This document shows, in pieces, positions 8,679-64,000 of a stretch of DNA of 64,000 nucleotides. Where the stretch lies: positions 971,686-1,035,685 of the forward strand of contig CP129478.1 of the NCBI GenBank assembly GCA_030583845.1. The letters run 5' to 3'. The notes under the pieces were generated by a model that saw only the letters and a list, made by a program, of their open reading frames with translations, had not been told where the DNA came from and ran no database searches. Both the position numbers and the translations under genes were made by a program. Each line of letters opens with the position of its first letter. The first letter of the stretch is position 1. This DNA comes from Candidatus Dojkabacteria bacterium. GTDB taxonomy: Bacteria > Patescibacteriota > Dojkabacteria > SC72 > JAHDCA01.

Positions 8679-9612
8679 AAAGCTCTCCGATGATGAGCTC
8701 CGGTCTCGTGTGGGGAAGATCATACTTTTTGCTAGAACTGACCCGATACAGAAATTGCGAATAGTAGAAGCTCTACGAGCGAATGGTGAGGTAATAGCTA
8801 TGACAGGCGATGGGGTAAACGACTCCCCAGCACTTAAATCTGCGGATATTGGGATCGTCGTGAAAGATGCGTCAGATATATCAAAAGAGGTGGCAGATAT
8901 GGTGCTCCTGGATTCAAACTTTGGGACAATCGTCAGGGCGGTCGAGGAGGGTCGTGCCATGTTCGATAATATTAAGAAAACCGTCATGTATCTGCTTATA
9001 GGAAGCTTTAGTGAGCTGATTCTTGTCATGGGAGCTATATTGCTACAGCTACCACTTCCGATTACTGCTCTGCAGATATTGTGGGTGAACCTAGTCGAAG
9101 ACGCACTGCCTGCATTATCTTTGGCATTTGAGCCAAAGGAGGGCGATCTATTAAAACAGCCACCGAGGAGCAAGAATGAGCATATCTTGGATCGCCAGAT
9201 GTTAAAGATTATTGCACTATTTGTATTAATCGCGGATGCTATGATCTTTTTAATTTTCTACTACCTACATAGAGAAAGTGTGAGCGTTGAGCTAATGCGA
9301 ACGGTAGTATTTGTAGGTGTAGGAATCAACTCTCTTTTCTATATTTTCGCCTGCAAATCCTTGCGTCACACAATTTTCAGCTACAATCCTTTCTCAAACA
9401 GGTTTATGGTTTTGTCAGTGTTAATTGGGATTGGCGCATTGATTGTAGGTGTACAGATGCCGATATTTAATTTGGTATTAGGCACAGTGCCGCTTTCGTT
9501 GGGTTATTGGACTTCCCTGTTTGGCCTTGGGCTGCTTAACTTGCTTTTGTTCGAGGTGATAAAGGTTTGGGTAAATCGTGGGAACCGTTCGACAGAAATG
9601 CAGTTGAGATAA
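8614..9612 (+). CDS. P-type cation-transporting ATPase, C-terminal fragment after a +1 frameshift
   Basis: 'MTGDGVNDSPALKSADIGI' (hinge motif GDGxNDxPAL) and C-terminal TM helices. It overlaps the upstream fragment over 8614-8678 in a different frame. Confidence 0.7.
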   Translation: MACLMRAIMLADGTAITGVELKKLSDDELRSRVGKIILFARTDPIQKLRIVEALRANGEVIAMTGDGVNDSPALKSADIGIVVKDASDISKEVADMVLLDSNFGTIVRAVEEGRAMFDNIKKTVMYLLIGSFSELILVMGAILLQLPLPITALQILWVNLVEDALPALSLAFEPKEGDLLKQPPRSKNEHILDRQMLKIIALFVLIADAMIFLIFYYLHRESVSVELMRTVVFVGVGINSLFYIFACKSLRHTIFSYNPFSNRFMVLSVLIGIGALIVGVQMPIFNLVLGTVPLSLGYWTSLFGLGLLNLLLFEVIKVWVNRGNRSTEMQLR

Positions 9613-42944: not shown

Positions 42945-43022
42945 GGTGGATGTAGCTCAATTGGTTAGAGCATCGGTTTGTGGAACCGAGGGTTGTGGGT
43001 TCAAGCCCCATCTTCCACCCCA
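42945..43022 (+). tRNA. tRNA-His (anticodon GTG) with genomically encoded G-1
   Basis: G-1 + GTGGATG acceptor, anticodon loop TTGTGGA, T-arm GTGGGTTCAAGCCCCAT, discriminator C73 pairing with G-1, and CCA. Confidence 0.85.
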
Positions 43023-43386: not shown

Positions 43387-45678
43387 CTAAAGTGATACCT
43401 CAACTTCTTGTCGGATAATCTGTTCAAGTTGAGCTGAGTTTTCTAAAATTGATTGTACATCAATATTCTCACTTGGGTCACTGACTGATAATATCCAACA
43501 ATAATTTTGCTCTATCGTTGTATCGTCATCTTCTGTTGTTAACTGAGTTATAACCTCAATCTTGCCTGCTGGAAATTTATTTCTAAAAGTCTCTGAATGT
43601 ATTAAGGAGAATTTCTTCCCATTTACTTTCTTTCTCCCTTTTAATTTGGATAAGTAAGATATTTTTTCTTCACCTGACGGTAAGACCTTAATTAAACGAA
43701 CATTCGCTTCAAGGCTGTGGCGATTATAACTATCTACATAAGCATTATTCACTGGTGGGTTGTAAACGCATGTAAATGTTATTTGAAGTTTTTTATCAAT
43801 TAATTCATTCGGGATATCTACTAAAACTCTATGCTTTTTGAAAGAACCTTTAATTGTGTCTGCATAGAGAATATTTACGTTTGATGAATTTGAAGATAAT
43901 AGCTTTGCAATATTGGGTGTACCCATACCTAAGAATTTTTGCATATTCCCCGTAGGCTGTTGTATAGGCATCTCAGCAGAGTGTATAAGCATCGCTTTTA
44001 TTGTATTAGCATAGTTATTTGTTAATTCTAGGTGCTCGTTGATGTCTGAATTATGTAAATAATCTAATGCAAATATGGCTTCTCTAGTGACTAAAGGTGT
44101 GCTGAAGCTTGTTCCGTTGTCTTTTTCAATTTTGTCCCCTACAATGCCCTCAACACCGTAGTTTCTCTTTGACTGTTCAAGATTATTATCCATACAAATC
44201 TCACCACCATGTGCGACTAACTCTGGCTTAATAATGTAATCTCTATTATGCCCTCCTCGACTGAATGGTGAAGGGGCACCATTCACTGGGCTCCACGTTG
44301 TATCATCAGTAATTTCAGCTACGGAACCGACTGTTAGCATATTAATTGCATCACTTGGGGATGCTATTTCAATACCATTTGAGCTGATAATTTCATCATA
44401 AGTCGAATATCCCAAATAGGAATCGTGGTTTCCTGAGCTTCCTATAAATAAGACATCATATTTTCTCGAATAATAATCTATTAATACAGTTATTGGATGT
44501 ATTTTCCTGCTCTCAATGGGTAATTTATTATTAATGGATAAATTATAGATTTTAACTTTTGGATATTTACCTAATGACTTTTCTATAACATCGGCTAAAG
44601 AAAATAAATCTTCTATTTCTGGTGCACCGTCAGCTCCTTGGTATAAAACCTGTAAGTTCAGAATTTGAGCAATTGGAGTTAGAGTTGAACTAGTTAATAG
44701 CGAAGTAATATTTCCCCCATATAATATTCTGCTTGCAACAAAAGTGCCGTGCGATGTATCTTCCAATTTGTGACTGGGAATATATTTCTCAGTATGAAAT
44801 ACTGATGAACTGATAGCTTTAGAATTAATACCACTATCTATCAAGCCGATTATTTCATCTGTTTGAGGGGGAGTTATGCTTATTGAGTTAATATCGATTG
44901 AAGGTAAGCTTCTACTTGCCGTCATGGCTCCAAGAGGGTATATGTATGCTATATCATCCAATTTTGCGTCAGAAAGCATAGCCTCGACTTGAGACTTCGT
45001 AATTGATGCTAAAAAGTACATTTGATTATTTATAAAAAATTTCGCATCTACTTTCTGCAAGTCGTCACTATCTAATTTTTGTGCAATTGCATTAAAAAGC
45101 ACATCGTATTGTTCAAAGGGTATATATGAAGCCATCTCAATAATACATTCGATTTTTTGATTAGGAATTTGGGATAATTTCTGAAACAAGTGCGTATCAA
45201 TTCTTTCTGTTATTTTCCTGGAATAAACGCTTGCACCTGTGAATGCATATACTTCTCTGAATGCATTTCTATCAATTGTTCTAACATCATCTAATTTCTC
45301 TTTCGCTTTAATGTATGATGCTTCCTCTAGTGATTTTTTCAGAGTTGTTAAGGACGGCAATTCAGCACTTATTATGATTTTATTATCGGTGGACGACGAT
45401 ACTATCCGAATATTATTCATATCCCACAGTCTATGAGGTTTGCTTGTTTTCGATGCTGCTTTTTCATCAAGATTAACTTCAATATACCTTCGACTGGTAA
45501 TGGATGGTTCAGATTCGATACTACTATTAACAGCACTTGTTATTGTGTTCAAACGGTTTATATATCCTTCCTCTGTTATATAGTCATCGTTTTCCCAATG
45601 AGTTTCCCAGAAATCGCTCCCGTGCGCTTGTTTCGCTTCTTTAGTTGCTTTGTTTTTTAAGGTGTAAAGAATTTCCAT
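43387..45678 (-). CDS. Cytoplasmic subtilisin-like (S8) serine peptidase; IetS-like candidate
   Basis: Catalytic triad motifs 'IGLIDSGIN' (Asp), 'HGTFVASRI' (His) and 'GTSFSTPLV' (Ser). No signal peptide, and a large N-terminal non-protease region of about 270 aa. Confidence 0.8.
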   Translation of the reverse strand: MEILYTLKNKATKEAKQAHGSDFWETHWENDDYITEEGYINRLNTITSAVNSSIESEPSITSRRYIEVNLDEKAASKTSKPHRLWDMNNIRIVSSSTDNKIIISAELPSLTTLKKSLEEASYIKAKEKLDDVRTIDRNAFREVYAFTGASVYSRKITERIDTHLFQKLSQIPNQKIECIIEMASYIPFEQYDVLFNAIAQKLDSDDLQKVDAKFFINNQMYFLASITKSQVEAMLSDAKLDDIAYIYPLGAMTASRSLPSIDINSISITPPQTDEIIGLIDSGINSKAISSSVFHTEKYIPSHKLEDTSHGTFVASRILYGGNITSLLTSSTLTPIAQILNLQVLYQGADGAPEIEDLFSLADVIEKSLGKYPKVKIYNLSINNKLPIESRKIHPITVLIDYYSRKYDVLFIGSSGNHDSYLGYSTYDEIISSNGIEIASPSDAINMLTVGSVAEITDDTTWSPVNGAPSPFSRGGHNRDYIIKPELVAHGGEICMDNNLEQSKRNYGVEGIVGDKIEKDNGTSFSTPLVTREAIFALDYLHNSDINEHLELTNNYANTIKAMLIHSAEMPIQQPTGNMQKFLGMGTPNIAKLLSSNSSNVNILYADTIKGSFKKHRVLVDIPNELIDKKLQITFTCVYNPPVNNAYVDSYNRHSLEANVRLIKVLPSGEEKISYLSKLKGRKKVNGKKFSLIHSETFRNKFPAGKIEVITQLTTEDDDTTIEQNYCWILSVSDPSENIDVQSILENSAQLEQIIRQEVEVSL

Positions 45679-45684
45679 GTTATC

Positions 45685-46800
45685 TTATGATTTTATATTA
45701 TCAATGAGAGTTGTGTATGGAATACCTGTGCTTTCGGATATTTGTTGTTTTGTAAATCCTAAATTTGTTAATTCTTGAGCTATTTTGTAAGCATCATTTT
45801 TGTTCAGTATATTTTCCATCTGCAATACTAAAAAGAGTTCTTTTAGCGAGATTATTGTAATATTTTCACTATTTTCTGCTAGTGCTAGTTTTCGTTTAAT
45901 TCTTAAAGAGATTTGTTGTATTGCTGAGCCACTTAGCCCATCGCTATATTTAACGAGTAGTTTAAGAGGTAAGTCGTTAGTACTATTCGATAAGTATGTT
46001 TGAAATAACTGTCGTCTCTCTGATATAAGTGGTAATTTTAACTCTAACCGTGTTTCAAATCTTCTCCAGAGTGCTTTATCTAAGAGTGAGTCGTGGTTTG
46101 TCGCTCCAATTAATATCGAGGATTTAGGGAAGTTGTCTATATTTTGTAGAAGTACTGTCACGACTCTTTTTAATTCTCCAAGCTCTGATGAATCATCTCT
46201 GTGTTTAGCTATTGTATCAATTTCATCCAGAAAGATTATAACATTCTCGTTTTTCGCTATTTCAAATATGGAACGAATATTCTTACCTGTTTTACCTAAG
46301 TACGAGGAAACTATTTCGTCTAATCTTACTAATATTAAAGGAAGATTTAACTCGTTAGCTATTGCATTCGCAAGAATTGTCTTTCCTGTGCCTGGTGCTC
46401 CATAAAGTAATATTGAATTAGAAGGGTAAATGTTCTCTTTTTCAAGCTTGTCACGTGCTTTCCACTCTTGAAGCCAGCTATTAATAACTTTGTGAGTAAA
46501 CTTGTCTAAAGTTACATTTGAAATAGAGATTTTTGGTGTGTTACGTTCATATAGATTCTCGTTTTTATCAATTATAATGTTGGCTCTTGTTTTTTGTCCT
46601 GAGAAACTATCTAGGAGCATCATTTCTGAGCGTATCTTTTCCAAACGTTTAACTATTTTATAATGGCCCTTTGCTTTCGCTTCTTCAATTTCCTGAATTA
46701 TCATTTTATTGACAATATTAATATTGTTCTCGGAAGCTGCTTTAATAAATTTTTCTACGAAATCAACTTTAAAGGACATTTCCGTATTTGCATAATACAT
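45685..46800 (-). CDS. AAA+ ATPase (classic AAA clade); IetA-like candidate
   Basis: 'LLYGAPGTGKT', 'IIFLDEIDTI' and 'ILIGATNHDSLLDKALWRRFE'. It is 7 nt upstream of, and co-oriented with, the S8 peptidase. Confidence 0.8.
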   Translation of the reverse strand: MYYANTEMSFKVDFVEKFIKAASENNINIVNKMIIQEIEEAKAKGHYKIVKRLEKIRSEMMLLDSFSGQKTRANIIIDKNENLYERNTPKISISNVTLDKFTHKVINSWLQEWKARDKLEKENIYPSNSILLYGAPGTGKTILANAIANELNLPLILVRLDEIVSSYLGKTGKNIRSIFEIAKNENVIIFLDEIDTIAKHRDDSSELGELKRVVTVLLQNIDNFPKSSILIGATNHDSLLDKALWRRFETRLELKLPLISERRQLFQTYLSNSTNDLPLKLLVKYSDGLSGSAIQQISLRIKRKLALAENSENITIISLKELFLVLQMENILNKNDAYKIAQELTNLGFTKQQISESTGIPYTTLIDNIKS

Positions 46801-46972
46801 TACTATATAAGTATAGGTTACAACTATAATTACGAATATGCAAGTATATATAATTCCGTAATAAGTCGTTAGCTGGCAAATTGTCGAAAATTGTTCGCGC
46901 TGAGATTGAAGCTTATCTTCAGGTTTAAGAATGCGTCACACAAAGCACCCCAATAAATACTCCATACTCACC

Positions 46973-47617
46973 TTAGCTGATAAATTCGACAATAACCTTA
47001 TTAACCTCTTCTAGAACTTTTGGTTGATACTGGTACTTATGCTCCATTTCAGGAATCTGACACCATTCTTTTGGCGCATTTGCTTTATCAAAGATCTTTC
47101 TGGTTACCGACATTGGAACCTTCTCATCTTCTTCACCAACAACAAATAAAACTGGGCAGGTAACATTCTGAATATAATCAATTGCATTATATTCTTGGGC
47201 ATCCTCAATAAACGAAAAGGGAATACTGAGCTCACCAAACTTTGAAGAAGTAACTTTGCGATAACCTGTTTCTTTCCACTCCTTATACTTTCCAGCTAGG
47301 TCATACTCACTTCCAACCTGATAAGGACTTACAATTAAGCCAAGTTTCTTCGGAGGGAATTCAGTTGCTAGGAGAGTTGCAATTATTCCTCCCATAGAGA
47401 ACCCTAGAATTATGAGTTCTTTGCTTTCTATCGCATTGAGAGTTGCTCTTGCAGTTGCGATGGTTTCTGAAAAACTATACTTGCTCATTTTATCAGGGAT
47501 GTGAGGCCATGCAATCTTAGTCACTATGTGACCAGTGGCTTGAAGCTCTTCTCCCAATTCTTTGAAAGTGACTTCTTCTGGATAACCGGTGAACCCCGGT
47601 ATAATTAATATGTCCAT
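46973..47617 (-). CDS. Alpha/beta-hydrolase (esterase) family protein
   Basis: Nucleophile elbow 'GFSMGG'. Confidence 0.65.
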   Translation of the reverse strand: MDILIIPGFTGYPEEVTFKELGEELQATGHIVTKIAWPHIPDKMSKYSFSETIATARATLNAIESKELIILGFSMGGIIATLLATEFPPKKLGLIVSPYQVGSEYDLAGKYKEWKETGYRKVTSSKFGELSIPFSFIEDAQEYNAIDYIQNVTCPVLFVVGEEDEKVPMSVTRKIFDKANAPKEWCQIPEMEHKYQYQPKVLEEVNKVIVEFIS

Positions 47618-47670
47618 AAACCAATTATAACTTCTAAAAGAAAATAGTTCCTAATCTCGTCAACTAACTG

Positions 47671-47702
47671 ACCACATTCGTGACTCTTAGCGAATTCGAA
47701 TA
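47671..47702. repeat. Direct repeat copy 2; putative attR-like islet boundary
   Basis: See copy 1. Confidence 0.5.
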
Positions 47703-47812
47703 TGGACGATAAATCTGCAGGTCAGAGTCTTGACCCTATGTGAGTCATAATTTCATCTAGCCTTGCTATCAAATCCTCCAATATCTATTCTAGCTTAGCT
47801 ATCTTCCAATCA

Positions 47813-48013
47813 CTACACACCCTCAAAAAGCGTCTCAACAAAGTTAAGAATCAAACCCATCGTTTTATCGGTAAGTGATCGCCTCTCGAGGATTTTGGGA
47901 GGGGTATTTAATGACTTAACAACCTCATCTCCAATATGCTTTCTCTCTGTAAATAGATATTCATCAATAATTTCTTGAACTTTAGATTCGTTAAGATCAT
48001 TTTCTGCACACAT
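47813..48013 (-). CDS. Small hypothetical protein
   Basis: 66-aa ORF; no motif. Confidence 0.3.
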   Translation of the reverse strand: MCAENDLNESKVQEIIDEYLFTERKHIGDEVVKSLNTPPKILERRSLTDKTMGLILNFVETLFEGV

Positions 48014-48230
48014 TTTCTTGAACTACCTGGAATTTCCGGGTAGTTGAGTTTCTATCTAACTCGCCTACTTTATATATGTTTTGAGAAGGCTCATAACTGT
48101 GTTAGTGTCTTTATCAAACAGTTTCTCTATATGTTTTTGGGTTAACCAAACGGTCTCATTTTCGAGATTAACCTCAACTGTTATTACACGGTCTGATCTT
48201 TGTAAAAGATGAGCTCTTTTTTTAAGAAAT

Positions 48231-49802
48231 TTATAAAAAGTACTGACTCATATATTGCCTCAATGAATCATCAACTATATATACATATGTTCCGTTAATA
48301 CCACGAGTGAGTAGAGTTGTATATATGTTCTTTATGTATGCTTCTAATTCTGCTGGATCAGAAATTGCTCTCTTTCCATTGAAGTCGAGGTATTTTGATT
48401 TATCAACAACCACTTTATGTTTGTTTTTGTCGTAAGAAATCTCGGGTCCAATTATTACACCTGCATAATTCAGATCATAGCCCTGAATCGTGTGAATACA
48501 CCCAATTTCATTTACTGCATTAGGTGAATTAACCCAATCTTCTGTGACACTATTCCACTTAAGCCGTGTGCCGTCAATTTCAATATCATAATCGATCTCA
48601 TTGTTTCCTTTGGTCTTCCATTCCCAGGCATATCCTGCGAGTATCCTTGAAAGACTGTAATCATAATCCTTTTCTTTGATTGCCAAGACCATATCTTTTA
48701 TATTATTAAAGAGTTTGAATTCATAGGTATAGAATTTATTTGGATACGGATTGGAGCAGTTTAAAATATCCCTTATATATTCTATATAGTCCATTCCTCC
48801 ATTGACTCTCATCTGAGAAGTTAATTTGTGGTTTACAAAGGAAATATTGTCTAATGCGTTATATTTAATGTCAGCTGGCTTTACTGACTGATACTTGTCA
48901 TAAAATAGCACTTGATGCTTTGATGATTGCAGGATCCAGTCTAATTGTGTAGCAGAGTCTTTCTCAAGTCCTAAAGATGCAGAGATCTTATCGAAATCTC
49001 TATAGTTTGTTAGGTTTACCCGTCTTTGTAGCCGATGGGCTTCGTCAACAATCAAGATATCGTACTTTTTCCTTACTACATCATTAGGACCAATTACCAT
49101 ACCTGGCGTTAGACCCTTAATATTTCTAAAGACGCGCTTAAGTGTTTTACGAAGCGATGTCATTGGAATAACAAGACCTATCTCTAAGTCTTTAGACCAT
49201 TTCTTCATGCTTAATGCTTTTACTAGATAGGTGGCTACAATTGTCTTCCCCGTTCCTGGCTCACCGGATACAAGATGGGGAATTCTTTCCCCAAATTTAA
49301 TACTGGACATTATCTTATCAACGACGTCTAGCTGATCTTGCGAGAGGGCTTTGTACGGAGAATATTTAAACAAATCACTATTTTGAATTTGAACAAGATC
49401 ATTATCGACTACTTTTAACTTTTGAAGTTCTTTCCAAATAGTCTCAAATTTAGCTTGATAACGCTCTCTATCGTAATAATTTGACTCCTGTATTCCAAAA
49501 TTAGCATTTTGTAATAGGTATTTACCATCGCCGGACATATATCTAATCAAGGAGGATTCTATGTCAAGCGTAGCAGACTTGTTATATTCATCATCTGCAA
49601 TTATATACATTGAGTTTAGCTTAGCCCTGTCTGCCTTCTCGAAATGCTGGCTAGCCCGTCTATATGCTGCTGTAGTTTCTCCAATATAGGCTTCCTTACC
49701 GTCTTCAAGAATATACACTATTGGCCAATTCTCACCGTATCGATAATCCCTTACATTTGTAAATTGATCCTTCCTGTAATTAAATTTCTTGATCTCGTAC
49801 AT
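48231..49802 (-). CDS. GIY-YIG nuclease domain fused to a DUF2075-type P-loop ATPase/helicase-like domain
   Basis: N-terminal 'PIVYILEDGKEAYIGETT...YRRASQH' (GIY-YIG). Walker A 'GEPGTGKT' and Walker B 'ILIVDEAHRLQ', with overall shape like DUF2075 proteins. Confidence 0.65.
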   Translation of the reverse strand: MYEIKKFNYRKDQFTNVRDYRYGENWPIVYILEDGKEAYIGETTAAYRRASQHFEKADRAKLNSMYIIADDEYNKSATLDIESSLIRYMSGDGKYLLQNANFGIQESNYYDRERYQAKFETIWKELQKLKVVDNDLVQIQNSDLFKYSPYKALSQDQLDVVDKIMSSIKFGERIPHLVSGEPGTGKTIVATYLVKALSMKKWSKDLEIGLVIPMTSLRKTLKRVFRNIKGLTPGMVIGPNDVVRKKYDILIVDEAHRLQRRVNLTNYRDFDKISASLGLEKDSATQLDWILQSSKHQVLFYDKYQSVKPADIKYNALDNISFVNHKLTSQMRVNGGMDYIEYIRDILNCSNPYPNKFYTYEFKLFNNIKDMVLAIKEKDYDYSLSRILAGYAWEWKTKGNNEIDYDIEIDGTRLKWNSVTEDWVNSPNAVNEIGCIHTIQGYDLNYAGVIIGPEISYDKNKHKVVVDKSKYLDFNGKRAISDPAELEAYIKNIYTTLLTRGINGTYVYIVDDSLRQYMSQYFL

Positions 49803-49804
49803 AG

Positions 49805-50131
49805 CTATTTCTTGAATTTGGTATATTTGGTGGCATTACCTTTAGCTTTCTCAACAGGATATTTTTCTTCACTTATTGCTAATTTATCTGAAGCTACTTT
49901 TTCAAGGTCAATATCTAGTGAATTTGCAAACAGAAGAAGATAGGTATAGAGGTCTGCTACTTCTGATTTAACATCCTCTAGGTCATATTTATCCGTCCAC
50001 TGGAAGCATTCTAATAACTCTCCTGCTTCGATAGATAATGATTTGGCAAGATTTTGCGGGGTATGGAACTGTTTCCAATCTCTTGCATCCCGAAAATTTA
50101 TGAGTCTTTCTAGTAATTTTGAGTGTTTCAT
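49805..50131 (-). CDS. MazG-like nucleoside triphosphate pyrophosphohydrolase (small, YpjD-like)
   Basis: 'LSIEAGELLECFQW' and 'EVADLYTYLLLFANSLDIDLE' (EExxE / ExxD helices of the MazG fold). Its stop is 3 nt from the next gene's start. Confidence 0.7.
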   Translation of the reverse strand: MKHSKLLERLINFRDARDWKQFHTPQNLAKSLSIEAGELLECFQWTDKYDLEDVKSEVADLYTYLLLFANSLDIDLEKVASDKLAISEEKYPVEKAKGNATKYTKFKK

Positions 50132-50266: not shown

Positions 50267-50770
50267 GTGGTCTTTTCACTCATAGGCCTTTATACTACCC
50301 CAATGCGAATCAACCTAAAAAAATACTACATAGAAATCCAATCGCCCACACTCTGCACCCTCATAGGCAGACTAAATGGCTTTGCCAACCCAGAAAGCGT
50401 CAAAGCTGGAGCATTTTACCCTTTCCTCTACCTCCGTTTTCCAGACCATCCAAATAACCCCACATGGATAAATCACGAGAAGATTCATTTTCGCCAGCAG
50501 TTGGAGTTACTTTTCATATTCTATTTCATCTTTATCGCGGCAGAGCGAATCTATTACAGATACTTCCGAAAATTATCACCATTAGACTCATATCTTGCAT
50601 CTGCATTTGAGCAGGAGTGCTACATCAATCAGAGTGATACACTGTATCTGAGTAGGCGAAGGCCGTATGCATTTCTGAAGTATATGCGTGAGAAGAGAAC
50701 TATTAGGTTTGTTGATAGAGAGGGGAATATAACGATCACAAATGACGAGCTTATCGCAATCAATAGTTAA
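50267..50770 (+). CDS. Hypothetical protein with an HExxH motif ('HEKIH'); its 3' end is copy 1 of an 89-bp repeat
   Basis: 167-aa ORF; C-terminal 'YLSRRRPYAFLKYMREKRTIRF' recurs at 58549-58637. Confidence 0.45.
   Translation: MVFSLIGLYTTPMRINLKKYYIEIQSPTLCTLIGRLNGFANPESVKAGAFYPFLYLRFPDHPNNPTWINHEKIHFRQQLELLFIFYFIFIAAERIYYRYFRKLSPLDSYLASAFEQECYINQSDTLYLSRRRPYAFLKYMREKRTIRFVDREGNITITNDELIAINS
50642..50730. repeat. 89-bp direct repeat, copy 1 (3' end of CDS 50267-50770)
   Basis: About 90% identical to 58549-58637, including a 31-nt exact block 'tatgcatttctgaagtatatgcgtgagaaga'. Confidence 0.85.
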
Positions 50771-50799: not shown

Positions 50800-51282
50800 G
50801 TGAAAAAGTTCATGTTTGAGCCACTAATATATACATTTAAGAACTTCCCTTACAAATCCTGTCTAGGGCTGTCAGTATTTGAGTTTCATAAACTAACGTC
50901 CGATTTTCAGCTTTTTCAGGATGAAATTATAAAGTTGAAACCTACAATCGTTATAGGCGTAGCCAAAAGCCCTACAAACAAATCAAATTTCGAGAGTAGA
51001 GCAGTAAATCAATACAACCATGCTAAGAAGTTGGATGTAGGGGGCATTTATGAATATACTCTTGATTACCCAGAAAATGGATTTGGCAGTATTGGCATAA
51101 GCGCTGACTTTACCGATAGCTTTTGTAATTGGACAATGTATAGGATTTCGCAAATATTAGTTGGTACTGACACTAGATTACAGTTCATTCATATAGCAGA
51201 ACCAGATCTACCAGACATGGAAAAGTATCTGATGTATATCAGAGATAATAAGGTTCAATACTTATCTGTTTCAGATTCCTAA
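50800..51282 (+). CDS. Hypothetical protein
   Basis: 160-aa ORF. Confidence 0.45.
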   Translation: MKKFMFEPLIYTFKNFPYKSCLGLSVFEFHKLTSDFQLFQDEIIKLKPTIVIGVAKSPTNKSNFESRAVNQYNHAKKLDVGGIYEYTLDYPENGFGSIGISADFTDSFCNWTMYRISQILVGTDTRLQFIHIAEPDLPDMEKYLMYIRDNKVQYLSVSDS

Positions 51283-51358
51283 AATTTCGTTTGAAATGTA
51301 TAATTCACGAAATTCCTGCCCCATTTTCTTTTTACATAGCGATGAAATGCATAATTAA

Positions 51359-52048
51359 ATGAGTAAAGCATCCTTTGTAAGTGCACATAATAAAAAGGAT
51401 TGGCCATCTACCGGGAATAGATATCAACAGATCGAAGATGCAATCAGACTCAAGACAGTGTCAATTGTTGAGCTGATAGAACACAGAAAACGGAATGGAC
51501 TTCCGTCAAATGTGCTCGATCTCTTTGGACCGGGAGGTAACACAGGAAAAGCATTCATGCGAAAAGCGGACAGTTGGACCGGCATTAGATTAAATCCAGG
51601 TATAAATACACATGCAGAAGTGCTTGTAGCTGACCTATTTGATCCTGTGGCTAGAGATTCGATATGTTTGCCCGTTCAGCCAGATATTATCCTATGTAAT
51701 CCAATCGGTGCATTTGGTTTAGAAGGGATTAGAGGCCTAGACTATAAAGATTGGAGCATTTTCATGCAAGAATTTTATAGCTGGGCATATTCACACCTCT
51801 CATCAAATTACGGATTAATGTTTTCAGAATTAATGTCGTTTGTTCCAGATGGAATCTACTATAAAGCATGGCCCGAAATGTACAGGGACATGGTGAGCCA
51901 ATATATAACTGGATTGAGATCTCAAGGAGTTAATGTCACAGTACCAGCTTTAGAAACTGACACAGATGCGATGAGATCCATATTATTTGAGAAAGGTCCT
52001 GATTCGCCACACTGTTTACAGTTTGTTGAAATTGACTTGCAGGTATAA
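51359..52048 (+). CDS. Hypothetical protein with weak SAM-methyltransferase-like motifs
   Basis: 'VLDLFGPGGNTG' (motif I-like) and 'ILCNPIGAFG' (motif IV-like); tentative. Confidence 0.35.
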   Translation: MSKASFVSAHNKKDWPSTGNRYQQIEDAIRLKTVSIVELIEHRKRNGLPSNVLDLFGPGGNTGKAFMRKADSWTGIRLNPGINTHAEVLVADLFDPVARDSICLPVQPDIILCNPIGAFGLEGIRGLDYKDWSIFMQEFYSWAYSHLSSNYGLMFSELMSFVPDGIYYKAWPEMYRDMVSQYITGLRSQGVNVTVPALETDTDAMRSILFEKGPDSPHCLQFVEIDLQV

Positions 52049-52176
52049 TTTGGGGCTCACACTAGTCAAGAACCTAGCCATCATACAAACACCATTTCCC
52101 ATCCATTGAGACCCAACAATAATGTCCGTTTTACATCTCCCTGGGAATAAGTCTACCTCTTTCTTGCATACTTCTC

Positions 52177-52701
52177 CTACTTAATCCCATACTTACCATC
52201 AACAGAATCCCTAAACAAAGGCAGCCTTAACGGTTTGAAGCTTAATATCCCAAAAATTATGCTCTGCCCAAAAATAACTAGAAGAATTACCCACATAGGT
52301 AGTTCAAAATTAGTATTAATATACAAGAAATAGGAGGTTAGCTGACCTAAAATTATCGCAATTAGAAATACAGCTAAATCTAATACTAATACGTTCTTTC
52401 CTAGAATCCTTGGATAGATCCATTCTGCAACTAAAATAAAGAGGATCATGACATAAATCCCGATAATTTCAGAACTAAAAAATTTCAACGTAGACTGGTT
52501 TAATAAAATGTATTGAAAGATTGCAAAAATTAAAGCTGGATAAAAAGCGATCTTCAAATGTTCCCAAATACTTTCATTAACAGGACTAAATATAGCCATC
52601 CAAGGCCTTTTACCTCCATATTTATAAAGAAAGTGAAAAAATGAGCCTAAGATGAATATTATTGGGATTCCTATTAATTCAACAATAGCTATTTGATTCA
52701 T
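52177..52701 (-). CDS. Polytopic small membrane protein
   Basis: 174 aa, about 5 TM. Confidence 0.5.
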   Translation of the reverse strand: MNQIAIVELIGIPIIFILGSFFHFLYKYGGKRPWMAIFSPVNESIWEHLKIAFYPALIFAIFQYILLNQSTLKFFSSEIIGIYVMILFILVAEWIYPRILGKNVLVLDLAVFLIAIILGQLTSYFLYINTNFELPMWVILLVIFGQSIIFGILSFKPLRLPLFRDSVDGKYGIK

Positions 52702-52798
52702 GTGTTGTTCGTAATAGTGGAATAGCTAATTGTACACCATAACGTGGTATAATTACCTGGTGTCAGATTAAGTCAGTTTAAATTTAGCAAAGTCAGAA

Positions 52799-53164
52799 AT
52801 GTCAGAACAAAATAGATACTCTTCGCATTTTGTATGCGGAGTCATCAAATTCGACTACAAAGTCGCAGGTTTCAGAGATCTCATCACAGTCGCCCAGGAG
52901 TGGGCTAAAGACGAAAACTTCTACGAGCTAATCGTTCGTTCAGTCTCAGACAAAAATTTTGGACTTCAATTTACATATTATGCAGAGGGAACAGTAGGAG
53001 GCTGGTTTGGTGATACATACATCAAACCGCTTTTAGCGAAGTTCCCATCATATGCGGTAGATGTAGCCTATGATGGTCGTACCCGAGAGGAAGTAAAAGC
53101 GGAGGTACTAGACGGGGTAGTGGTTAGCAAATCATTGCCTATTGGGAAGGTGGTGAAGGAGTAG
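52799..53164 (+). CDS. Hypothetical protein
   Basis: 121-aa ORF. Confidence 0.45.
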   Translation: MSEQNRYSSHFVCGVIKFDYKVAGFRDLITVAQEWAKDENFYELIVRSVSDKNFGLQFTYYAEGTVGGWFGDTYIKPLLAKFPSYAVDVAYDGRTREEVKAEVLDGVVVSKSLPIGKVVKE

Positions 53165-53418: not shown

Positions 53419-54447
53419 ATGAAGATTATATTTTTTGTAGTTAAAGGATTGGAAGATATTGCAGAAAACGAACTGATGCAATTTGGCGTAGAGATAGAAA
53501 AGGTTGATACGAAATAAATTGTTGGTTCTTTCGCAGGTGACTTACATGATTTGTGCAATTTAAAAACTGTTGATGATTTAGCATTACTCTTTGATTCCTT
53601 TGAGGTAGGTAAGAATACGGTGATAGAAGATATTATAGAGCACGTCAGCAAAGCAAACATCAAACAATATATTCAAGTAATTGAGCAGCTAAGAGAGCTA
53701 TCAAGTAACTTCTCAATAACGATAAGCAAATACAAATCCACTGCAGATACATATGAACTGAAAGCGCAATTAGCCAGTCAACTAAGCTCTGAGCTAGATA
53801 TGCAGTTCACAGAGAAAGAGCATGAGAATTTTGACGTGCGAATAAGCATAGGGCAACAGAGGGTAGTCTTGGCTATACGCTTGTTTGCAAAACCTTTGCA
53901 TGATCGAGAATACGTTACACATAATTATTTAGGTTCATTAAAACCGACCATATCAGCATCGCTTTATAAAATGGCTTGCTCAAAAATAAAAGATAAAGAT
54001 AAAGTACAATTAGTTGATAATTTTTGCGGTAGTGGCACGATACTATGTGAGTCATTTCTACAAGGTGCAGAGGTCTCGGGTGGTGATGTGAGCCCGGAAG
54101 CTGTGAAGATGGCAGGGGAGAATTTGAAAGCTGTTGGAGCTAAAGACTTTACTCTTAAGATAGAATCTGCCTTTTCCACAGATTGGGATGAGGCGCAGTT
54201 TAACCTAGCTATTTCAAATCCACCATGGGGTGAACAACTTGAGGTTGCAAGTATGACTGAACTTTATGAAAAATCAGTAAGAGAGTATAAAAGAATATTA
54301 ACCGATGACGCTGTACTTTGCTTTATTGTCAAGAAACCTGACCTCCTAATAAAGTTTATAAAATCTCATTTCCCTAAGCATAGAATAGAAAGCCGCACTA
54401 TTAGTTTTAACGGCCAGCAGCCAACTATTGTTATTGCTTATCTATAA
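53419..54447 (+). pseudogene. THUMP/RlmL-like SAM-dependent RNA (m2G-type) methyltransferase interrupted by a single in-frame TAA at 53515-53517. The intact downstream ORF starts at TTG 53551.
   Basis: Upstream mini-ORF 'MKIIFFVVKGLEDIAENELMQFGVEIEKVDTK*' is in the same frame and continues 'IVGSFAGDLHDL...'. Downstream are 'DNFCGSGTIL' (motif I) and 'SNPPWG' (motif IV). Confidence 0.55.
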
Positions 54448-55402
54448 TATTTGTAAACTAATCGCTATGAAATATGACAACGCTACTATACGAGATAATA
54501 TTGTCAGGAGTATCGAAACAAATTACCAAATAGTTGTCGATACTGTGAGCTTTATCCCAATTGGTGAAGAAAGTTATTCCTACAAAATTAAAGGTAAGAA
54601 TAGTCAGACGTTTTTCGCCAAGTACTGTGCCAAGAAAGAAATCATTGCAAGTATTGATATAGTAAACGAGCTATTACTAAAATTAAGCAATTTTGAATTT
54701 GTAGTTCCTCCAATTCAAATAAGAGGTAAAACCTCATGCTCAGTATTGGAAGGTAAACTCTACCTGTTTCCATTTATTAATGGCACAAATATTAGCTTAG
54801 GTAATCATGATTGGGATAAAACCCTCTATGAAAGGATTTTCGACATAATGATTAAAATTCACAATTCAACTCACATTATTAATCTTAATTTACCTAAAGA
54901 AACATTTGAGAATAACTTTATTGATAGGCTTAATCTATTAGTGTCTGTAGTAGGCAACAATCAAAATTATGACAAACAAACAAACGAATTGTTGATTATG
55001 AACGAAACACTAATTCGTAAAATTATAAATCAACACACCTTATTAGGAGCGATGTATAAGAAAAAGAATTTGAGATTTGTTCTGACTCACGGTGATATTA
55101 CGGGTTTGAATATAATTAAAACAACAAAAGGGATGAAGTTAATTGATTGGGACGGTGCAATGTTTACTCCTTCCGAAAGAGACCTTAACTTTCTTTCATC
55201 AAATAAACATTTTTCAATAAAGAAATATATTACAGAAACTAAAAGTAAACATTACCCCGACTTATTAGACTACTACGGACAGCAATGGTCACTAAATAGT
55301 ATTTTAGAGAATTTCGAAGCGTTACTTTCTTCGAATATGACTAATATAAATAAAGATGACTGTATCGATGAAATTAACGAATATTTGTCATACTATAAAT
55401 AA
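54428..55402 (+). CDS. Aminoglycoside/choline-kinase-like phosphotransferase (APH fold)
   Basis: Catalytic 'LTHGDITGLN' (HGDxxxxN) and 'LIDWDGA' (DxD metal site). Confidence 0.6.
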   Translation: MLLLIYNICKLIAMKYDNATIRDNIVRSIETNYQIVVDTVSFIPIGEESYSYKIKGKNSQTFFAKYCAKKEIIASIDIVNELLLKLSNFEFVVPPIQIRGKTSCSVLEGKLYLFPFINGTNISLGNHDWDKTLYERIFDIMIKIHNSTHIINLNLPKETFENNFIDRLNLLVSVVGNNQNYDKQTNELLIMNETLIRKIINQHTLLGAMYKKKNLRFVLTHGDITGLNIIKTTKGMKLIDWDGAMFTPSERDLNFLSSNKHFSIKKYITETKSKHYPDLLDYYGQQWSLNSILENFEALLSSNMTNINKDDCIDEINEYLSYYK

Positions 55403-55563: not shown

Positions 55564-56334
55564 ATGAACGACAAAACCATGAAAGGACTTAACAGATCAA
55601 ATCTCGCACTATCAGCACTTCATTTCGCACAAGCATTAGCTGTGCTCTTTCTATCGAGTGCTGACCAAGGAGTCGTCCCGATTACGACCAATTACTTAAA
55701 ATTTGATCCAGCTACAAGCGCTTTAGCACCTGCAACTACCGAGCTATTTACAGTGAATCTGGCATGGTTTGTTGTTATATTTTTCTTGATCTGCTCATTA
55801 GCACATCTGAGTATTGCAACTGTATATCGCAAGAGATATGAATCAGACTTAAAGGTAGGGATAAACAAAGCAAGATGGATAGAGTACTCATTAAGCGCAA
55901 GCGTGATGATGCTGGCAATAAGCTTCCTGACCGGAATCTACGATATTTCCAGCCTAATAATGATCTTCACCCTTGTAGCTTTAATGAACCTGCTTGGACT
56001 TGCAATGGAGCTGATCAACAAAGGGAAGGAGAAGACCGACTGGTATACATACTGGCTGGGCTGTATAGCGGGGATTGTGCCCTGGATAGTGTTTGGGGTG
56101 TATGTCTTTGGCGCTAACAAGTATGGCGGTGGCAATATTCCTGACTTTGTGTACTGGATCTATGTCTCGATATTTATTTTCTTCAATTGCTTTGCGGTGA
56201 ATATGTTCTTGCAGTACAAGAAGATAGGGCCATGGAGGGATTATCTATACGGCGAGCGTGTTTATATGATTCTGAGTTTGGTAGCTAAGTCGCTACTCGC
56301 GTGGCAGGTGTTTGCTGGAGTTCTGAGACCTTAG
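55564..56334 (+). CDS. Heliorhodopsin
   Basis: 7-TM, 256 aa, with near-identical blocks to heliorhodopsin 48C12 as I recall it: 'RWIEYSLSASVMM', 'WLGCIAGIVPWI', 'FVYWIYVSIFIFFN', 'LQYKKIGPWRDYLYGERVYMILSLVAKSLLAWQVF'. The Schiff-base Lys lies in 'SLVAKS'. Confidence 0.85.
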   Translation: MNDKTMKGLNRSNLALSALHFAQALAVLFLSSADQGVVPITTNYLKFDPATSALAPATTELFTVNLAWFVVIFFLICSLAHLSIATVYRKRYESDLKVGINKARWIEYSLSASVMMLAISFLTGIYDISSLIMIFTLVALMNLLGLAMELINKGKEKTDWYTYWLGCIAGIVPWIVFGVYVFGANKYGGGNIPDFVYWIYVSIFIFFNCFAVNMFLQYKKIGPWRDYLYGERVYMILSLVAKSLLAWQVFAGVLRP

Positions 56335-56484
56335 AATTTTACAGAGCCGAAGTTACGGGTTTAATTGAATAATGAAACCTTATACCCACGGCCGTTATTG
56401 CGTTTGTAGTAGAAGTAATACTTGCGTGAATTGTGGTAGTATAAAGAAATAAAAATCATCCCTACTAGAACCTAATCAAAACAG

Positions 56485-58539
56485 ATGAGCACACTTAGTC
56501 GGAGACAGCTATTTACCCCGAGAACTTATAGCCACGAATATTCCAGCGCACAAGATGGCATGGCACAGGTAGAAAACGAGCAACAGCAAACAGCCTTCAA
56601 GAATGCGTATTCTCTAGCTATTGAAGGAGAGCCGATGTCCCAAGAGCGCTCTAGGATGATTCAAGAAGAGGCATTGAAATTCCCACCAAATATCTCTCCA
56701 AATGCTATGACCGTGGGTAGCGGCAAACCATTTGATGTTATTACTATAATAAATTATCAGTCAGTCGATCAAATCGATCAAAAGACAGGGCAGGGTATCG
56801 CTGCCCAAGCAGACCAACGGCAAGGGACTATAACTTACTTTAAACCTGAACAAAGAGGCGTTTTTTACCACGAATTGATGCATCTTGTCGACGCATCGTA
56901 CGGCTCAATTTTCAGTGACGCTAAGTTTACCGAATGGAGTGAAGATCGTTGGCCCCAACAGAATCGCGATGGGCTACCTGTGCATATGGAAAATATATAC
57001 AGCACTAAAGATTATGCAGAGTTTTTCGCAACAGCTGCAGAGTCACTCATGAAAAACCCCTCCGACCGCCTCGGTATGTTTGGTGTAACTGGTCTGACTC
57101 GTGAAGAGAAGATCAAGAAGGTAACAACGATTGCGATGCTTGAAGCTCTTAGAACCACTACGCGGGGCTTTATGGGAAAGGATTATTGGTATCAATCTAT
57201 AGCAGGACGAATGCACTGGAGGTACTGGCTAGAAGCGAAGCAGGAAGAATTTGCTGAATTTAATGTTGCAAAATATGTTGAGCTGAATGACTCAGAGAAA
57301 ACACCAGCAATAGCATTTGTTACGCAGAATAATCAACCGATTAACGCTCCTTTGCAAGAAAGCTCCGAGTATCAGTTGCATTCAAACGTTGACCATTACA
57401 TCGTTACTCACAATGGTACAAGCATAGGAATAGAGCTAGGTGTAAATGCTACAGGTTTGCGGATAATAACTGCTGATGAGAAGGTTCTTGATTTTACTAT
57501 CACTACAGACCCTATTGCGGTTGAAAATAAACTAATGCTCGTTCAAGAGAGCTTATTATCCGACTTTTCTGGATCAAGCAGCTCGATAGTTATGCCGCCA
57601 TTGATGATAACCCAATTGTATCCGTTGATAATAGCCGCTCGCGAGCGCTCACACATTAATAATACGAATACGCCCTCAACGGTAGATTACCAACCACCTA
57701 TGTCAACGACCAACAAACTGTCGAGAAGAGACTTCCTTAGACTAGGCGCGGTTTTTGCCACAATGTTGACGGCAGCTGCACTTGCTGGTTGCTCACCCTT
57801 GCCCACACCACCCGAGCCAACAGCTATAGGCAACTCGTCAACCGCAATGCCAGATCTCCCTTCTCCTGCTGACTATTCGTTACTTGAGCAGAAGTATAGA
57901 GCCTACAAAGTCTTTGATCCATACCCACGTGTAGAAACTGTGCCAGTGCCTGGAGTGTACATGAGTGAGACAAAATACAGACCAGATATCATTAAGTACG
58001 CTGACAGCATCAAGATCGTAGACGGTCAACTAGTGGTGATAATTAATGGCATACCATTTACCCAAGAAGACACGAGATTCAAAAGCGAACTTACATTTGT
58101 AAATCGGAACGATGCTACCGTTTTTCACCCATCAGCGACTTCCGCAAATTTCATTATAAAGATGGGCGCCGCAGCTCAAACCCACGAGATAATTAATATG
58201 ATTAGTACATCAGTTGAAATTGTTAAACAACAGTATCCAGGTGCGGAAATGCTTTCAGTCGGCACATTAAGTGACACCACTGTAGGCGATGGGCTCGATT
58301 CTCTACAGTATGATAACACGATCCAAGATACTCTATGGTTATATAGAGGTTACACAATAGCTGCCCCGCGTATACAGGAGATGATTGATGATTCTGCTCT
58401 ATATTTTGTACTTCGAACCAGCGACAACCAGATAAGGTGTGTGAAATTCTTTCAGATACTGCCACCGAGAGATCTTATTGATAATAGCCAGCTGCCAAAG
58501 TCACTCATGGATCAAGCAAGGTTAGTGCTTGGAGGGTAG
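56485..58539 (+). CDS. Large hypothetical protein. It has an N-terminal HExxH (zincin-like) region and an internal Tat-signal/lipobox-like segment; possibly a fusion of two genes.
   Basis: 'FYHELMHLVD' at about aa 130. At about aa 404, 'MSTTNKLSRRDFLRLGAVFATMLTAAALAGCS' has a Tat motif plus lipobox. The N-terminus 'MSTLSRRQLF' echoes it. Confidence 0.5.
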   Translation: MSTLSRRQLFTPRTYSHEYSSAQDGMAQVENEQQQTAFKNAYSLAIEGEPMSQERSRMIQEEALKFPPNISPNAMTVGSGKPFDVITIINYQSVDQIDQKTGQGIAAQADQRQGTITYFKPEQRGVFYHELMHLVDASYGSIFSDAKFTEWSEDRWPQQNRDGLPVHMENIYSTKDYAEFFATAAESLMKNPSDRLGMFGVTGLTREEKIKKVTTIAMLEALRTTTRGFMGKDYWYQSIAGRMHWRYWLEAKQEEFAEFNVAKYVELNDSEKTPAIAFVTQNNQPINAPLQESSEYQLHSNVDHYIVTHNGTSIGIELGVNATGLRIITADEKVLDFTITTDPIAVENKLMLVQESLLSDFSGSSSSIVMPPLMITQLYPLIIAARERSHINNTNTPSTVDYQPPMSTTNKLSRRDFLRLGAVFATMLTAAALAGCSPLPTPPEPTAIGNSSTAMPDLPSPADYSLLEQKYRAYKVFDPYPRVETVPVPGVYMSETKYRPDIIKYADSIKIVDGQLVVIINGIPFTQEDTRFKSELTFVNRNDATVFHPSATSANFIIKMGAAAQTHEIINMISTSVEIVKQQYPGAEMLSVGTLSDTTVGDGLDSLQYDNTIQDTLWLYRGYTIAAPRIQEMIDDSALYFVLRTSDNQIRCVKFFQILPPRDLIDNSQLPKSLMDQARLVLGG

Positions 58540-58548
58540 GGTGACGTG

Positions 58549-58637
58549 CAGTATCTGAGTAGGCGAAAGCCCTATGCATTTCTGAAGTATATGCGTGAGA
58601 AGATTAAGATTAGGTTTATTGATAAAGTGGGGATATT
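58549..58637. repeat. 89-bp direct repeat, copy 2 (immediately after, and in frame with, the TAG stop of CDS 56485-58539)
   Basis: See copy 1. It would encode 'VQYLSRRKPYAFLKYMREKIKIRFIDKVGILM*'. Confidence 0.85.
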
Positions 58638-63787: not shown

Positions 63788-64000
63788 TCTGATATGTCTA
63801 AAAAATTATATATGCTGTACCCAAACTTATATAACTCTACTTTTAGTATCTCAAAATTTGGTAGCGAAAAGTAGTAGCGGAGCTAACCTGTAGTGCAGTA
63901 CCCATACATGTAAGTGTGGTAGTATAGATCAATGAGAATTTTGACTATCCAAAATGCATTGAGACTCGAAGAGATAGCGATGTTTGCGCTGAGTGTTATA

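Follow-up and report, generated by a model that had tools for sequence, protein, structure and literature searches.

A canonical, probably chromosomally resident heliorhodopsin gene at the edge of a variable low-GC region in a Candidatus Dojkabacteria genome

A seven-helix membrane protein encoded in the genome of a Candidatus Dojkabacteria bacterium raises two questions: is it a heliorhodopsin (HeR), and is its gene a resident of the chromosome or the cargo of a mobile element? The original prediction, made for the 64,000-nucleotide stretch of DNA analysed here (the window), proposed a HeR that lies between direct repeats and may be mobile or recently acquired. Our analysis supports the first of these proposals and argues against the second. 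The reading to which we assign a probability of roughly 0.85 is that of a canonical heliorhodopsin gene resident in the chromosome of its host, a Candidatus Dojkabacteria (CPR/Patescibacteria) bacterium. The gene is located as follows:

55564–56334, plus strand: heliorhodopsin (HeR) gene, 256 aa, ATG to TAG

The assignment to the HeR family rests on full-length profile matches and on the predicted fold, with HeR structures at the top of the fold search. The open reading frame matches the Pfam Heliorhodopsin family PF18761 with 313.5 bits (cutoff 26.7) over profile positions 1–242 of 242, and the NCBIfam HeR equivalog NF038020 with 316.5 bits (cutoff 100) over positions 1–244 of 244. A phmmer search against solved structures recovered TaHeR (6is6) at E=5e-71, covering residues 15–256, and 48C12 (6su3) at E=3e-51. 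The sequence blocks from which the protein had been recognized are present as quoted, with RWIEYSLS at residue 104, WLGCIAGIVPW at residue 164 and ERVYMILSLVAKSLLAWQVF at residue 231. The Schiff-base lysine is retained as K242, within the SxxxK motif of helix 7, and aligns with K241 of 48C12. The definition of this motif is taken from PMC9166423 and PMC8612252; in the window HeR it reads S238-L-V-A-K242 (SLVAK).

A type-1 microbial rhodopsin is ruled out by the Pfam and fold searches. No match of the open reading frame to the bacteriorhodopsin-like family PF01036 was found in Pfam at E<=0.01, and type-1 structures aligned to the predicted model in Foldseek at E values of at least 1e-3, with TM-scores of 0.53–0.64 and 10–18% identity. 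The residue four positions ahead of the lysine in helix 7 is Ser, not the Asp of type-1 rhodopsins. Neither placement among type-1 rhodopsins nor loss of the Schiff-base lysine was found, and HeR structures occupy all of the first ten places in the Foldseek ranking (TM 0.83–0.87, E 4e-20 to 1e-13).

The AlphaFold2 model, built with 35 homologs, has a pLDDT of 78.9 and is composed of seven transmembrane helices and a β-hairpin between TM1 and TM2. The helices span residues 3–30, 66–85, 102–122, 128–152, 160–187, 194–218 and 227–254, the strands of the hairpin span residues 37–48 and 53–65, and a short additional helix follows TM2. Values of pLDDT fall to 53–62 across residues ~190–230. A long β-hairpin connecting TM1 and TM2 is a hallmark of the published HeR structures. 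The distribution of charge favours an N-terminus inside the cell, with 18 Lys and Arg residues on the N-terminal side of the membrane and 2 on the other side, as counted on a crude hydropathy segmentation in which TM3 and TM4 are merged and TM7 is missed. Such a bias would be expected from the inverted topology of HeRs, in which the N-terminus is cytoplasmic and the C-terminus lies outside.

All residues known to be required for the HeR photocycle are present. His20, His81, Glu107, Ser238 and Lys242 are invariant across the 35 homologs and correspond to H23, H80, E107, S237 and K241 of 48C12. From this alignment, Glu107 in helix 3 is the predicted counterion and His20 and His81 the predicted histidine pair. 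Roles for the counterion glutamate and the histidine pair are known from published work on 48C12 and TaHeR. A second group of residues would line the lateral fenestration and the carotenoid site: Y163, C167, G170, F207, N208 and A211, equivalent to F162, C166, G169, F206, N207 and A210 of 48C12. A 2025 preprint proposes a carotenoid-site motif that, in 48C12 numbering, consists of G169, N207, an aromatic residue at each of positions 162 and 206 and a small one at each of 166 and 210 (bioRxiv 10.1101/2025.11.27.691015). Every position of this motif is matched in the window HeR, and with the motif intact a role for a carotenoid as second antenna is possible.

Among solved structures the best match is TaHeR, from the Thermoplasmatales archaeon SG8-52-1 (PDB 6IS6, 7U55 and 7CLJ), with TM-scores of 0.85–0.87 and 48% identity in Foldseek. 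TaHeR and the window HeR share the counterion glutamate, the histidine pair and SxxxK. Both carry Met (M214 in the window HeR) in place of Q213 of 48C12, and in both the first aromatic position of the fenestration is Tyr (Y163 in the window HeR, Y164 in TaHeR). They differ in about half of their residues and in the domain of the host, which is archaeal for TaHeR and bacterial (CPR) for the window HeR. The TM5–TM6 loop of the window HeR is also 5 residues longer, with a KYGGG insertion. The founding actinobacterial HeR, 48C12 (PDB 6SU3 and 6UH3), aligns over its full length with TM-scores of 0.83–0.85 and 40% identity, and is less similar to the window HeR than TaHeR is.

The window protein is an ordinary HeR of a known kind, already annotated and belonging to a published group. 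More than 7,700 HeR homologs were scored. Relatives at 65–75% identity come from Dojkabacteria metagenome-assembled genomes, the nearest, at 72–75% identity, include several named Dojkabacteria, and all 80 genome loci recovered with a related HeR are from Patescibacteria. CPR bacteria are treated as monoderm. HeRs have been reported only from monoderms (PMC8612252). The NCBI nr database already contains the identical protein, entitled 'MAG: heliorhodopsin HeR [Candidatus Dojkabacteria bacterium]', and the neighbouring genes carry NCBI locus tags of the QY318_ series. Chiriac et al. described HeRs of CPR bacteria in 2022; seven belong to Dojkabacteria, and SLVAK is one of the most frequent motifs in helix 7 (PMC9166423). 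Given the identical, named NCBI entry and the publication of Dojkabacteria HeRs in 2022, the window HeR is not novel. Compared with the Dojkabacteria and Patescibacteria HeRs in that study and in NCBI, among which SLVAK is common, the window HeR is set apart only by its gene neighbourhood, which is itself different at every locus examined.

The neighbourhood of the window HeR is accessory-like in composition and content, as had been proposed. GC content falls from ~0.44 to 0.32–0.38 between 43 and 56 kb. Third-position GC (GC3) has a background of 0.44±0.05, and between 43.4 and 55.4 kb the majority of genes depart from it with z scores of -2 to -3.7. This low-GC3 stretch contains a defence system, an APH-like kinase gene and an interrupted methyltransferase gene. 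Its left part begins directly after a tRNA gene and contains a defence island:

42946–43022: tRNA-His, with the low-GC stretch starting directly after it
43387–50131, minus strand: low-GC defence island encoding IetS, IetA, an alpha/beta hydrolase, a Schlafen-group-3 helicase with GIY-YIG, and a MazG-like protein

The genes of the defence island have GC3 values at z=-2.1 to -3.7, and PADLOC assigned two of them to an IetAS defence system, with 313 bits for IetA and 256 bits for IetS. We considered tRNA-His as the attachment site of an island extending to the HeR gene; the 3' end of the tRNA has no copy downstream, and this candidate was rejected. The HeR gene has a GC3 of 0.488 (z=+1.0), and the 684-aa gene that follows it and all genes further to the right are also at background. 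Because the atypical composition stops at 55.4 kb, right before the HeR gene, HeR lies just outside the acquired DNA. The variable low-GC region, made up of acquired genes, thus has HeR at its right-hand edge.

The genes between the defence island and the end of the 684-aa open reading frame are arranged as follows:

50267–50770, plus strand: small HExxH membrane protease-like gene, 167 aa, with HEKIH at residue 70 (phrog_15610 'protease', E=7.6e-16)
50800–53164: four small genes that separate the HExxH and methyltransferase genes and encode a 160-aa protein, a 229-aa protein, a DUF6512 protein and a 121-aa protein
52177–52701, minus strand: the DUF6512 gene (Pfam, 115.9 bits)
53419–54447, plus strand: interrupted gene for an RNA methyltransferase resembling RlmK/L, Trm14 and EmtA (PF01170, 61.6 bits)
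54428–55402, plus strand: gene for an APH-family (aminoglycoside/choline-kinase-like) phosphotransferase (PF01636, 30.9 bits, cutoff 23.2)
56485–58539, plus strand: orphan open reading frame of 684 aa (659 aa in the NCBI model), with HELMH at residue 129

The kinase and methyltransferase that had been noted upstream of HeR are both borne out. The APH-like protein matches PF01636 and retains both catalytic motifs (HGDITGLN and DWD), with a weak match to the NCBIfam APH(9)-like model (48.7 bits, cutoff 680); its gene is strongly atypical in composition (GC 0.30; GC3 0.30, z=-2.9). The methyltransferase gene is split by an in-frame TAA at 53515–53517 into a 32-codon piece (53419–53514) and a 298-aa open reading frame (53551–54447); what is left is a pseudogene or else a gene truncated at its N-terminal end. 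The TIGR01177, RlmKL, Trm14 and EmtA models all match it below their cutoffs, and its GC3 lies at z=-2.5. Recoding of this stop codon was rejected, as all three stop codons are in normal use across the window, where TAG terminates 29 ordinary genes, TAA 23 and TGA 7, and the methyltransferase stop is a TAA. No match to the 160-aa, 229-aa and 121-aa proteins was found in Pfam, NCBIfam, PADLOC or PHROGs.

The gene downstream of HeR had been described as encoding a large HExxH protein with a Tat signal and lipobox. Both elements are present, with the qualification that the Tat/lipobox-like hydrophobic segment (SRRDFL...LAGC) is internal, at residues 413–436, and not N-terminal. The GC3 of the gene (0.409) corresponds to native composition. 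A search of 5.8 billion proteins returned no match to the 684-aa protein but itself, a search of 1.84 billion representatives returned a single weak and partial match (E=5e-6), and Pfam, NCBIfam and PHROGs gave no match. An internal duplication, suggested by two 'MST..SRR' segments in this open reading frame, was discarded when no repeat was found in the DNA. Homology between the 167-aa and 684-aa HExxH proteins was also considered, and none was detected.

Several characterized HeRs act together with a protein encoded nearby, and one could suppose that the window HeR forms a light-regulated pair with the upstream APH-like kinase or the downstream 684-aa membrane protein. AbHeR is partnered with glutamine synthetase, TfHeR with photolyase and OcHeR with the OmrDE ABC transporter. 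These HeRs belong to the same family as the window HeR, and by analogy its expected mode of action would be light-dependent binding and modulation of another protein. None of glutamine synthetase, photolyase or an ABC transporter adjoins the window HeR. An ABC transporter pair lies downstream of HeR at the locus of the best genome relative, designated L001, and the window is without it; the HeR at L001 is 74% identical to the window HeR, and its flanking genes are unrelated to those of the window.

A pairing like that of AbHeR or OcHeR would be consistent with the arrangement of the APH-like, HeR and 684-aa genes, which lie on the same strand with short gaps between them, with the intact catalytic motifs of the kinase, and with the published HeR functions, all of which involve binding of a protein encoded by a neighbouring gene. 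It would also be consistent with L001, where an APH-family gene is again found directly upstream of HeR on the same strand. This last coincidence failed as evidence for a conserved APH–HeR pair, however, since the window and L001 APH proteins share no more than family membership (E=0.029). No homolog of the window APH protein is found near HeR in 85 loci. In 69 loci the immediate upstream neighbours are diverse, and the families that recur there (sortase in 8, NmrA-like in 5, CMAS in 4 and VKOR in 4) do not include APH. APH proteins and kinases are also absent from the ten published groups of HeR neighbours. The APH gene is compositionally foreign, whereas HeR is native, and the intergenic gaps of 161 and 150 nt on the two sides of HeR would suggest separate transcription. 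The 684-aa protein cannot be a conserved partner, because it has no homologs among 5.8 billion proteins. We therefore regard a light-regulated pair at this locus as very improbable.

Comparison of neighbourhoods gave the same picture for the remaining genes. When 22 window proteins (from 40–64 kb) were compared with the 85 HeR loci, none recurred as a partner apart from scattered weak cases, among them DUF6512 homologs 4.2–4.7 kb upstream of HeR in three of the 85 loci and a CMAS-like methyltransferase fragment near HeR in three loci. One linkage is recurrent: a gene for a class-II aminoacyl-tRNA synthetase lies <=10 kb from HeR in 16 of 82 loci. In the window, such a gene lies 33 kb upstream of HeR, and an old synteny may have been broken here by the variable region. 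A generic scan for promoters and terminators around HeR found nothing above chance. HeR is probably transcribed alone, with no conserved operon partner.

The proposal of a mobile cassette originated in a pair of direct repeats on either side of this group of genes:

50631–50726, plus strand: direct-repeat copy 1, within the 3' part of the small HExxH coding sequence
58538–58633, plus strand: direct-repeat copy 2, the non-coding, decayed 3' remnant of an HExxH paralog, starting exactly at the TAG of the 684-aa open reading frame

The repeats exist, although they are not the 89-bp repeats described: they extend over about 96–100 nt and are imperfect (identity 84% when 96 nt are aligned, 81% when 102 nt are), and their homology edges are sharp. 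They contain a core of 31 identical nucleotides (58573–58603 in copy 2), which occurs exactly twice in the window compared with an expectation of 0 in shuffled sequences. The repeat encodes YLxRRxPYA, the conserved C-terminal motif of the small HExxH family. This family comprises nine proteins with invariant HEKIHFRQQLELL and YLxRRxPYA motifs, and its other members are found in unrelated, larger genomes and are uninformative about synteny. Relative to copy 1, copy 2 has 12 non-synonymous and 2 synonymous differences, distributed evenly (5/8/6) over the three codon positions, and lacks the first ~120 codons of the gene. The coding-like sequence after the 684-aa open reading frame might be taken to indicate a recoded TAG; the excess of non-synonymous differences (12, against 2 synonymous) marks this sequence as a fragment in decay, and recoding was rejected. 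The best explanation of the repeats is that they represent the 3' end of a small protease-like gene and the decayed remnant of a paralog, and that they are the scar of a past rearrangement in this region and not evidence of HeR mobility.

The competing interpretation is that HeR is the cargo of a 7.9-kb integrative cassette (50.7–58.5 kb) that used the small HExxH gene as its target and inserted site-specifically at the 3' end. In that case attL and attR would be represented by the repeats, and the element would supply a replacement 3' end for its target gene. Such an element would account for a segment bounded by direct repeats with sharp homology edges, in which copy 1 completes an intact open reading frame and copy 2 is left as a stranded 3' fragment. 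The 31-nt perfect core within diverged homology resembles an att core and by a rough estimate (p ~0.03) would be longer than expected from a uniform identity of 81%. HeR genes with ~47% identity are also found on plasmids elsewhere, one in Lactococcus and one in Chloroflexota.

The content of the interval argues against a cassette. Pfam, NCBIfam, PADLOC and PHROGs revealed no integrase, recombinase or transposase among the open reading frames between 50.2 and 58.6 kb, and the whole interval had no match in collections of phage and plasmid DNA. Its composition is a mosaic: GC3 is 0.30–0.35 for most genes up to 55.4 kb, so that the left 4.6 kb is atypical, whereas HeR (0.49) and the 684-aa gene (0.41) are native-like. 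Because the atypical DNA ends at 55.4 kb, the repeat-bounded interval (50.7–58.5 kb) straddles a compositional boundary. The nearest relatives of the window HeR are Dojkabacteria HeRs, and the genes of the interval never accompany HeR in the 85 other loci beyond the weak cases given above. The search for an empty site in relatives covered a lookup of the exact HeR protein in a contig index, which returned no contig, and a metagenome scan with the methyltransferase flanking the interval at 58.6 kb, which returned a single match at 36% identity.

Taken with the origin of copy 2 as a paralog remnant, the native GC3 of HeR, the lack of mobility genes in the interval and the Dojkabacteria relatives speak against the suggestion that HeR is mobile or recently acquired. 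Native composition is compatible with an old acquisition or with acquisition from a genome of similar composition. The 31-nt perfect core leaves room for a past site-specific event, and for this reason we retain the cassette interpretation as an unlikely alternative. More improbable still is an elaborated form of it, in which the core is an att site and a recombinase-less, trans-mobilized 7.9-kb cassette carries HeR between CPR genomes, perhaps with the APH-like protein as a light-regulated partner, as might be suggested by the APH-family gene that precedes HeR at L001. A cassette, if true, would be a mildly interesting vehicle by which HeR spreads within the CPR, although the evidence points the other way.

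For the resident, canonical HeR that we favour, the source of the chromophore has to be considered. No genes for retinal or carotenoid synthesis were found among the ~59 open reading frames scanned in the window, which represents 64 kb of a genome of ~1.04 Mb. Genomes of Saccharibacteria (CPR) that encode rhodopsins are described without blh, and uptake of external retinal by HeR, via its fenestration, is fast (PMC9296517). Published work assigns HeRs a sensory or regulatory role (PMC8612252, PMC9529153, PMC9769723, PMC11109279).

By analogy with these systems, the window HeR would reside in the membrane with its N-terminus inside, and scavenged all-trans retinal would enter from outside through the fenestration and become bound at Lys242. 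Light would trigger photoisomerization, with transfer of the Schiff-base proton to the cluster formed by Glu107 and the histidines and without net transport. The resulting photocycle would be slow and non-pumping, with a long-lived intermediate that may modulate another protein or a stress response, and the protein would not serve as an energy-conserving pump. Characterized HeRs absorb at roughly 540–550 nm, and a pigment of this kind with a photocycle on the scale of seconds would be expected here.

One might instead suppose that a host unable to make retinal carries the gene as a non-functional relic or as a chromophore-free opsin. This would fit the lack of retinal and carotenoid genes in the window and the decay seen nearby, which includes the in-frame stop in the methyltransferase gene, a split P-type ATPase and the paralog remnant. 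The HeR open reading frame is intact, however, and its functional residues are invariant in comparison with homologs at 66–75% identity. HeRs are also widespread in Patescibacteria (PMC9166423), and both TaHeR and type-1 rhodopsins of CPR bacteria are documented to acquire retinal from outside (PMC9296517). A relic is thus the least probable of the alternatives considered, and we give it hardly any weight.

Overall, the protein had been identified correctly, its neighbourhood is variable, the gene itself looks resident and the case for a cassette is weak. The value of the locus is mainly confirmatory, and it offers no new handle on the question of HeR function. It adds one more case to the CPR HeRs that have no fixed gene partner and occur in genomes without known retinal synthesis genes. 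This pattern fits a generic light sensor or regulator that relies on the chromophore of neighbouring organisms.

The low-GC island that ends just upstream of the heliorhodopsin gene (HeR) begins with an IetAS anti-phage defence pair, positioned directly after tRNA-His (42946-43022). The genes considered here, within and outside this island, are as follows (window coordinates):

7182-8678 and 8614-9612 (overall 7182-9612), plus strand: P-type cation ATPase in two overlapping ORFs
20557-22548, plus strand: class-II aminoacyl-tRNA synthetase fused to DUF2000
43387-46800, minus strand: IetAS pair (PADLOC; IetS S8 protease, 256 bits; IetA AAA ATPase, 313 bits)
48231-50131, minus strand: Schlafen-group-3 helicase (PF09848, 209 bits), then a MazG-like pyrophosphohydrolase
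50267-50770, plus strand: small HExxH membrane protein, matching the phage 'protease' phrog_15610
53419-54447, plus strand: RlmK/L / Trm14 / EmtA-like methyltransferase, interrupted by an in-frame TAA (53515-53517)
56485-58539, plus strand: orphan 684-aa ORF of native composition, with HELMH at residue 129

According to PADLOC the IetAS pair is complete, here in a CPR genome. A repeat derived from tRNA-His was sought downstream of the tRNA in the window and none was found. The Schlafen-group-3 helicase, which carries a GIY-YIG-like segment at its N-terminus, probably forms a second defence module together with the MazG-like gene; weak PADLOC matches to Nhi and AbiO fall in the same interval. 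The small HExxH protein belongs to a family of nine members in which HEKIHFRQQLELL is invariant. Its other members are found in unrelated, larger genomes, beside Phenol_MetA_deg genes (loci L086-L089). Both the methyltransferase and the adjoining APH(9)-like kinase gene are foreign in composition. Together they look like a pair of the antibiotic-resistance type, but the scores of both fall a long way short of the curated cutoffs.

The 684-aa ORF directly downstream of HeR has no homologs among 5.8 billion proteins, and a search of 1.84 billion representatives returned a single weak and partial match. A classic Tat signal plus lipobox (SRRDFLRLGAVFATMLTAAALAGC) lies mid-protein, at residues 413-436; the ORF could be a fusion of two genes, have a wrongly placed start, or encode a membrane protein that spans the bilayer once. 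Approximately 30-55 nt upstream of its start is a 28-nt motif (56429-56456) that includes GTGGTAGTATA and recurs near the window end (63912-63939) with 79% identity between copies. TAGTATAAT is also present upstream of tRNA-His (42902). The shared motif may be a local -10 promoter element, so that the 684-aa gene would have its own promoter. Elsewhere in the window, a frameshift has split the P-type ATPase, or else the split is an error of the assembly.

Of 82 Patescibacteria loci, 16 (L014, L016, L050, L051 and L076 among them) carry a homolog of the class-II synthetase (51-55% identity) no more than 10 kb from HeR, often as its immediate upstream neighbour; in the window the two genes are 33 kb apart. 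This linkage may be an ancestral synteny that is disrupted here by the variable region. Annotated heR genes, ~47% identical to the window HeR, are located on plasmids of Lactococcus petauri (NZ_CP141705.1, 10.5 kb) and a Chloroflexota member (CP069395.1, 180 kb). One of these two plasmids has a prediction of mobilizability. Plasmids can thus carry HeR in other phyla. Directly upstream of HeR are a homolog of the PF04240 'carotenoid biosynthesis protein' in one Patescibacteria locus (L014:9313-9936) and a HisKA/HATPase_c histidine kinase in another (L075:8446-9456). These two genes could provide more informative leads to HeR function than the window itself.
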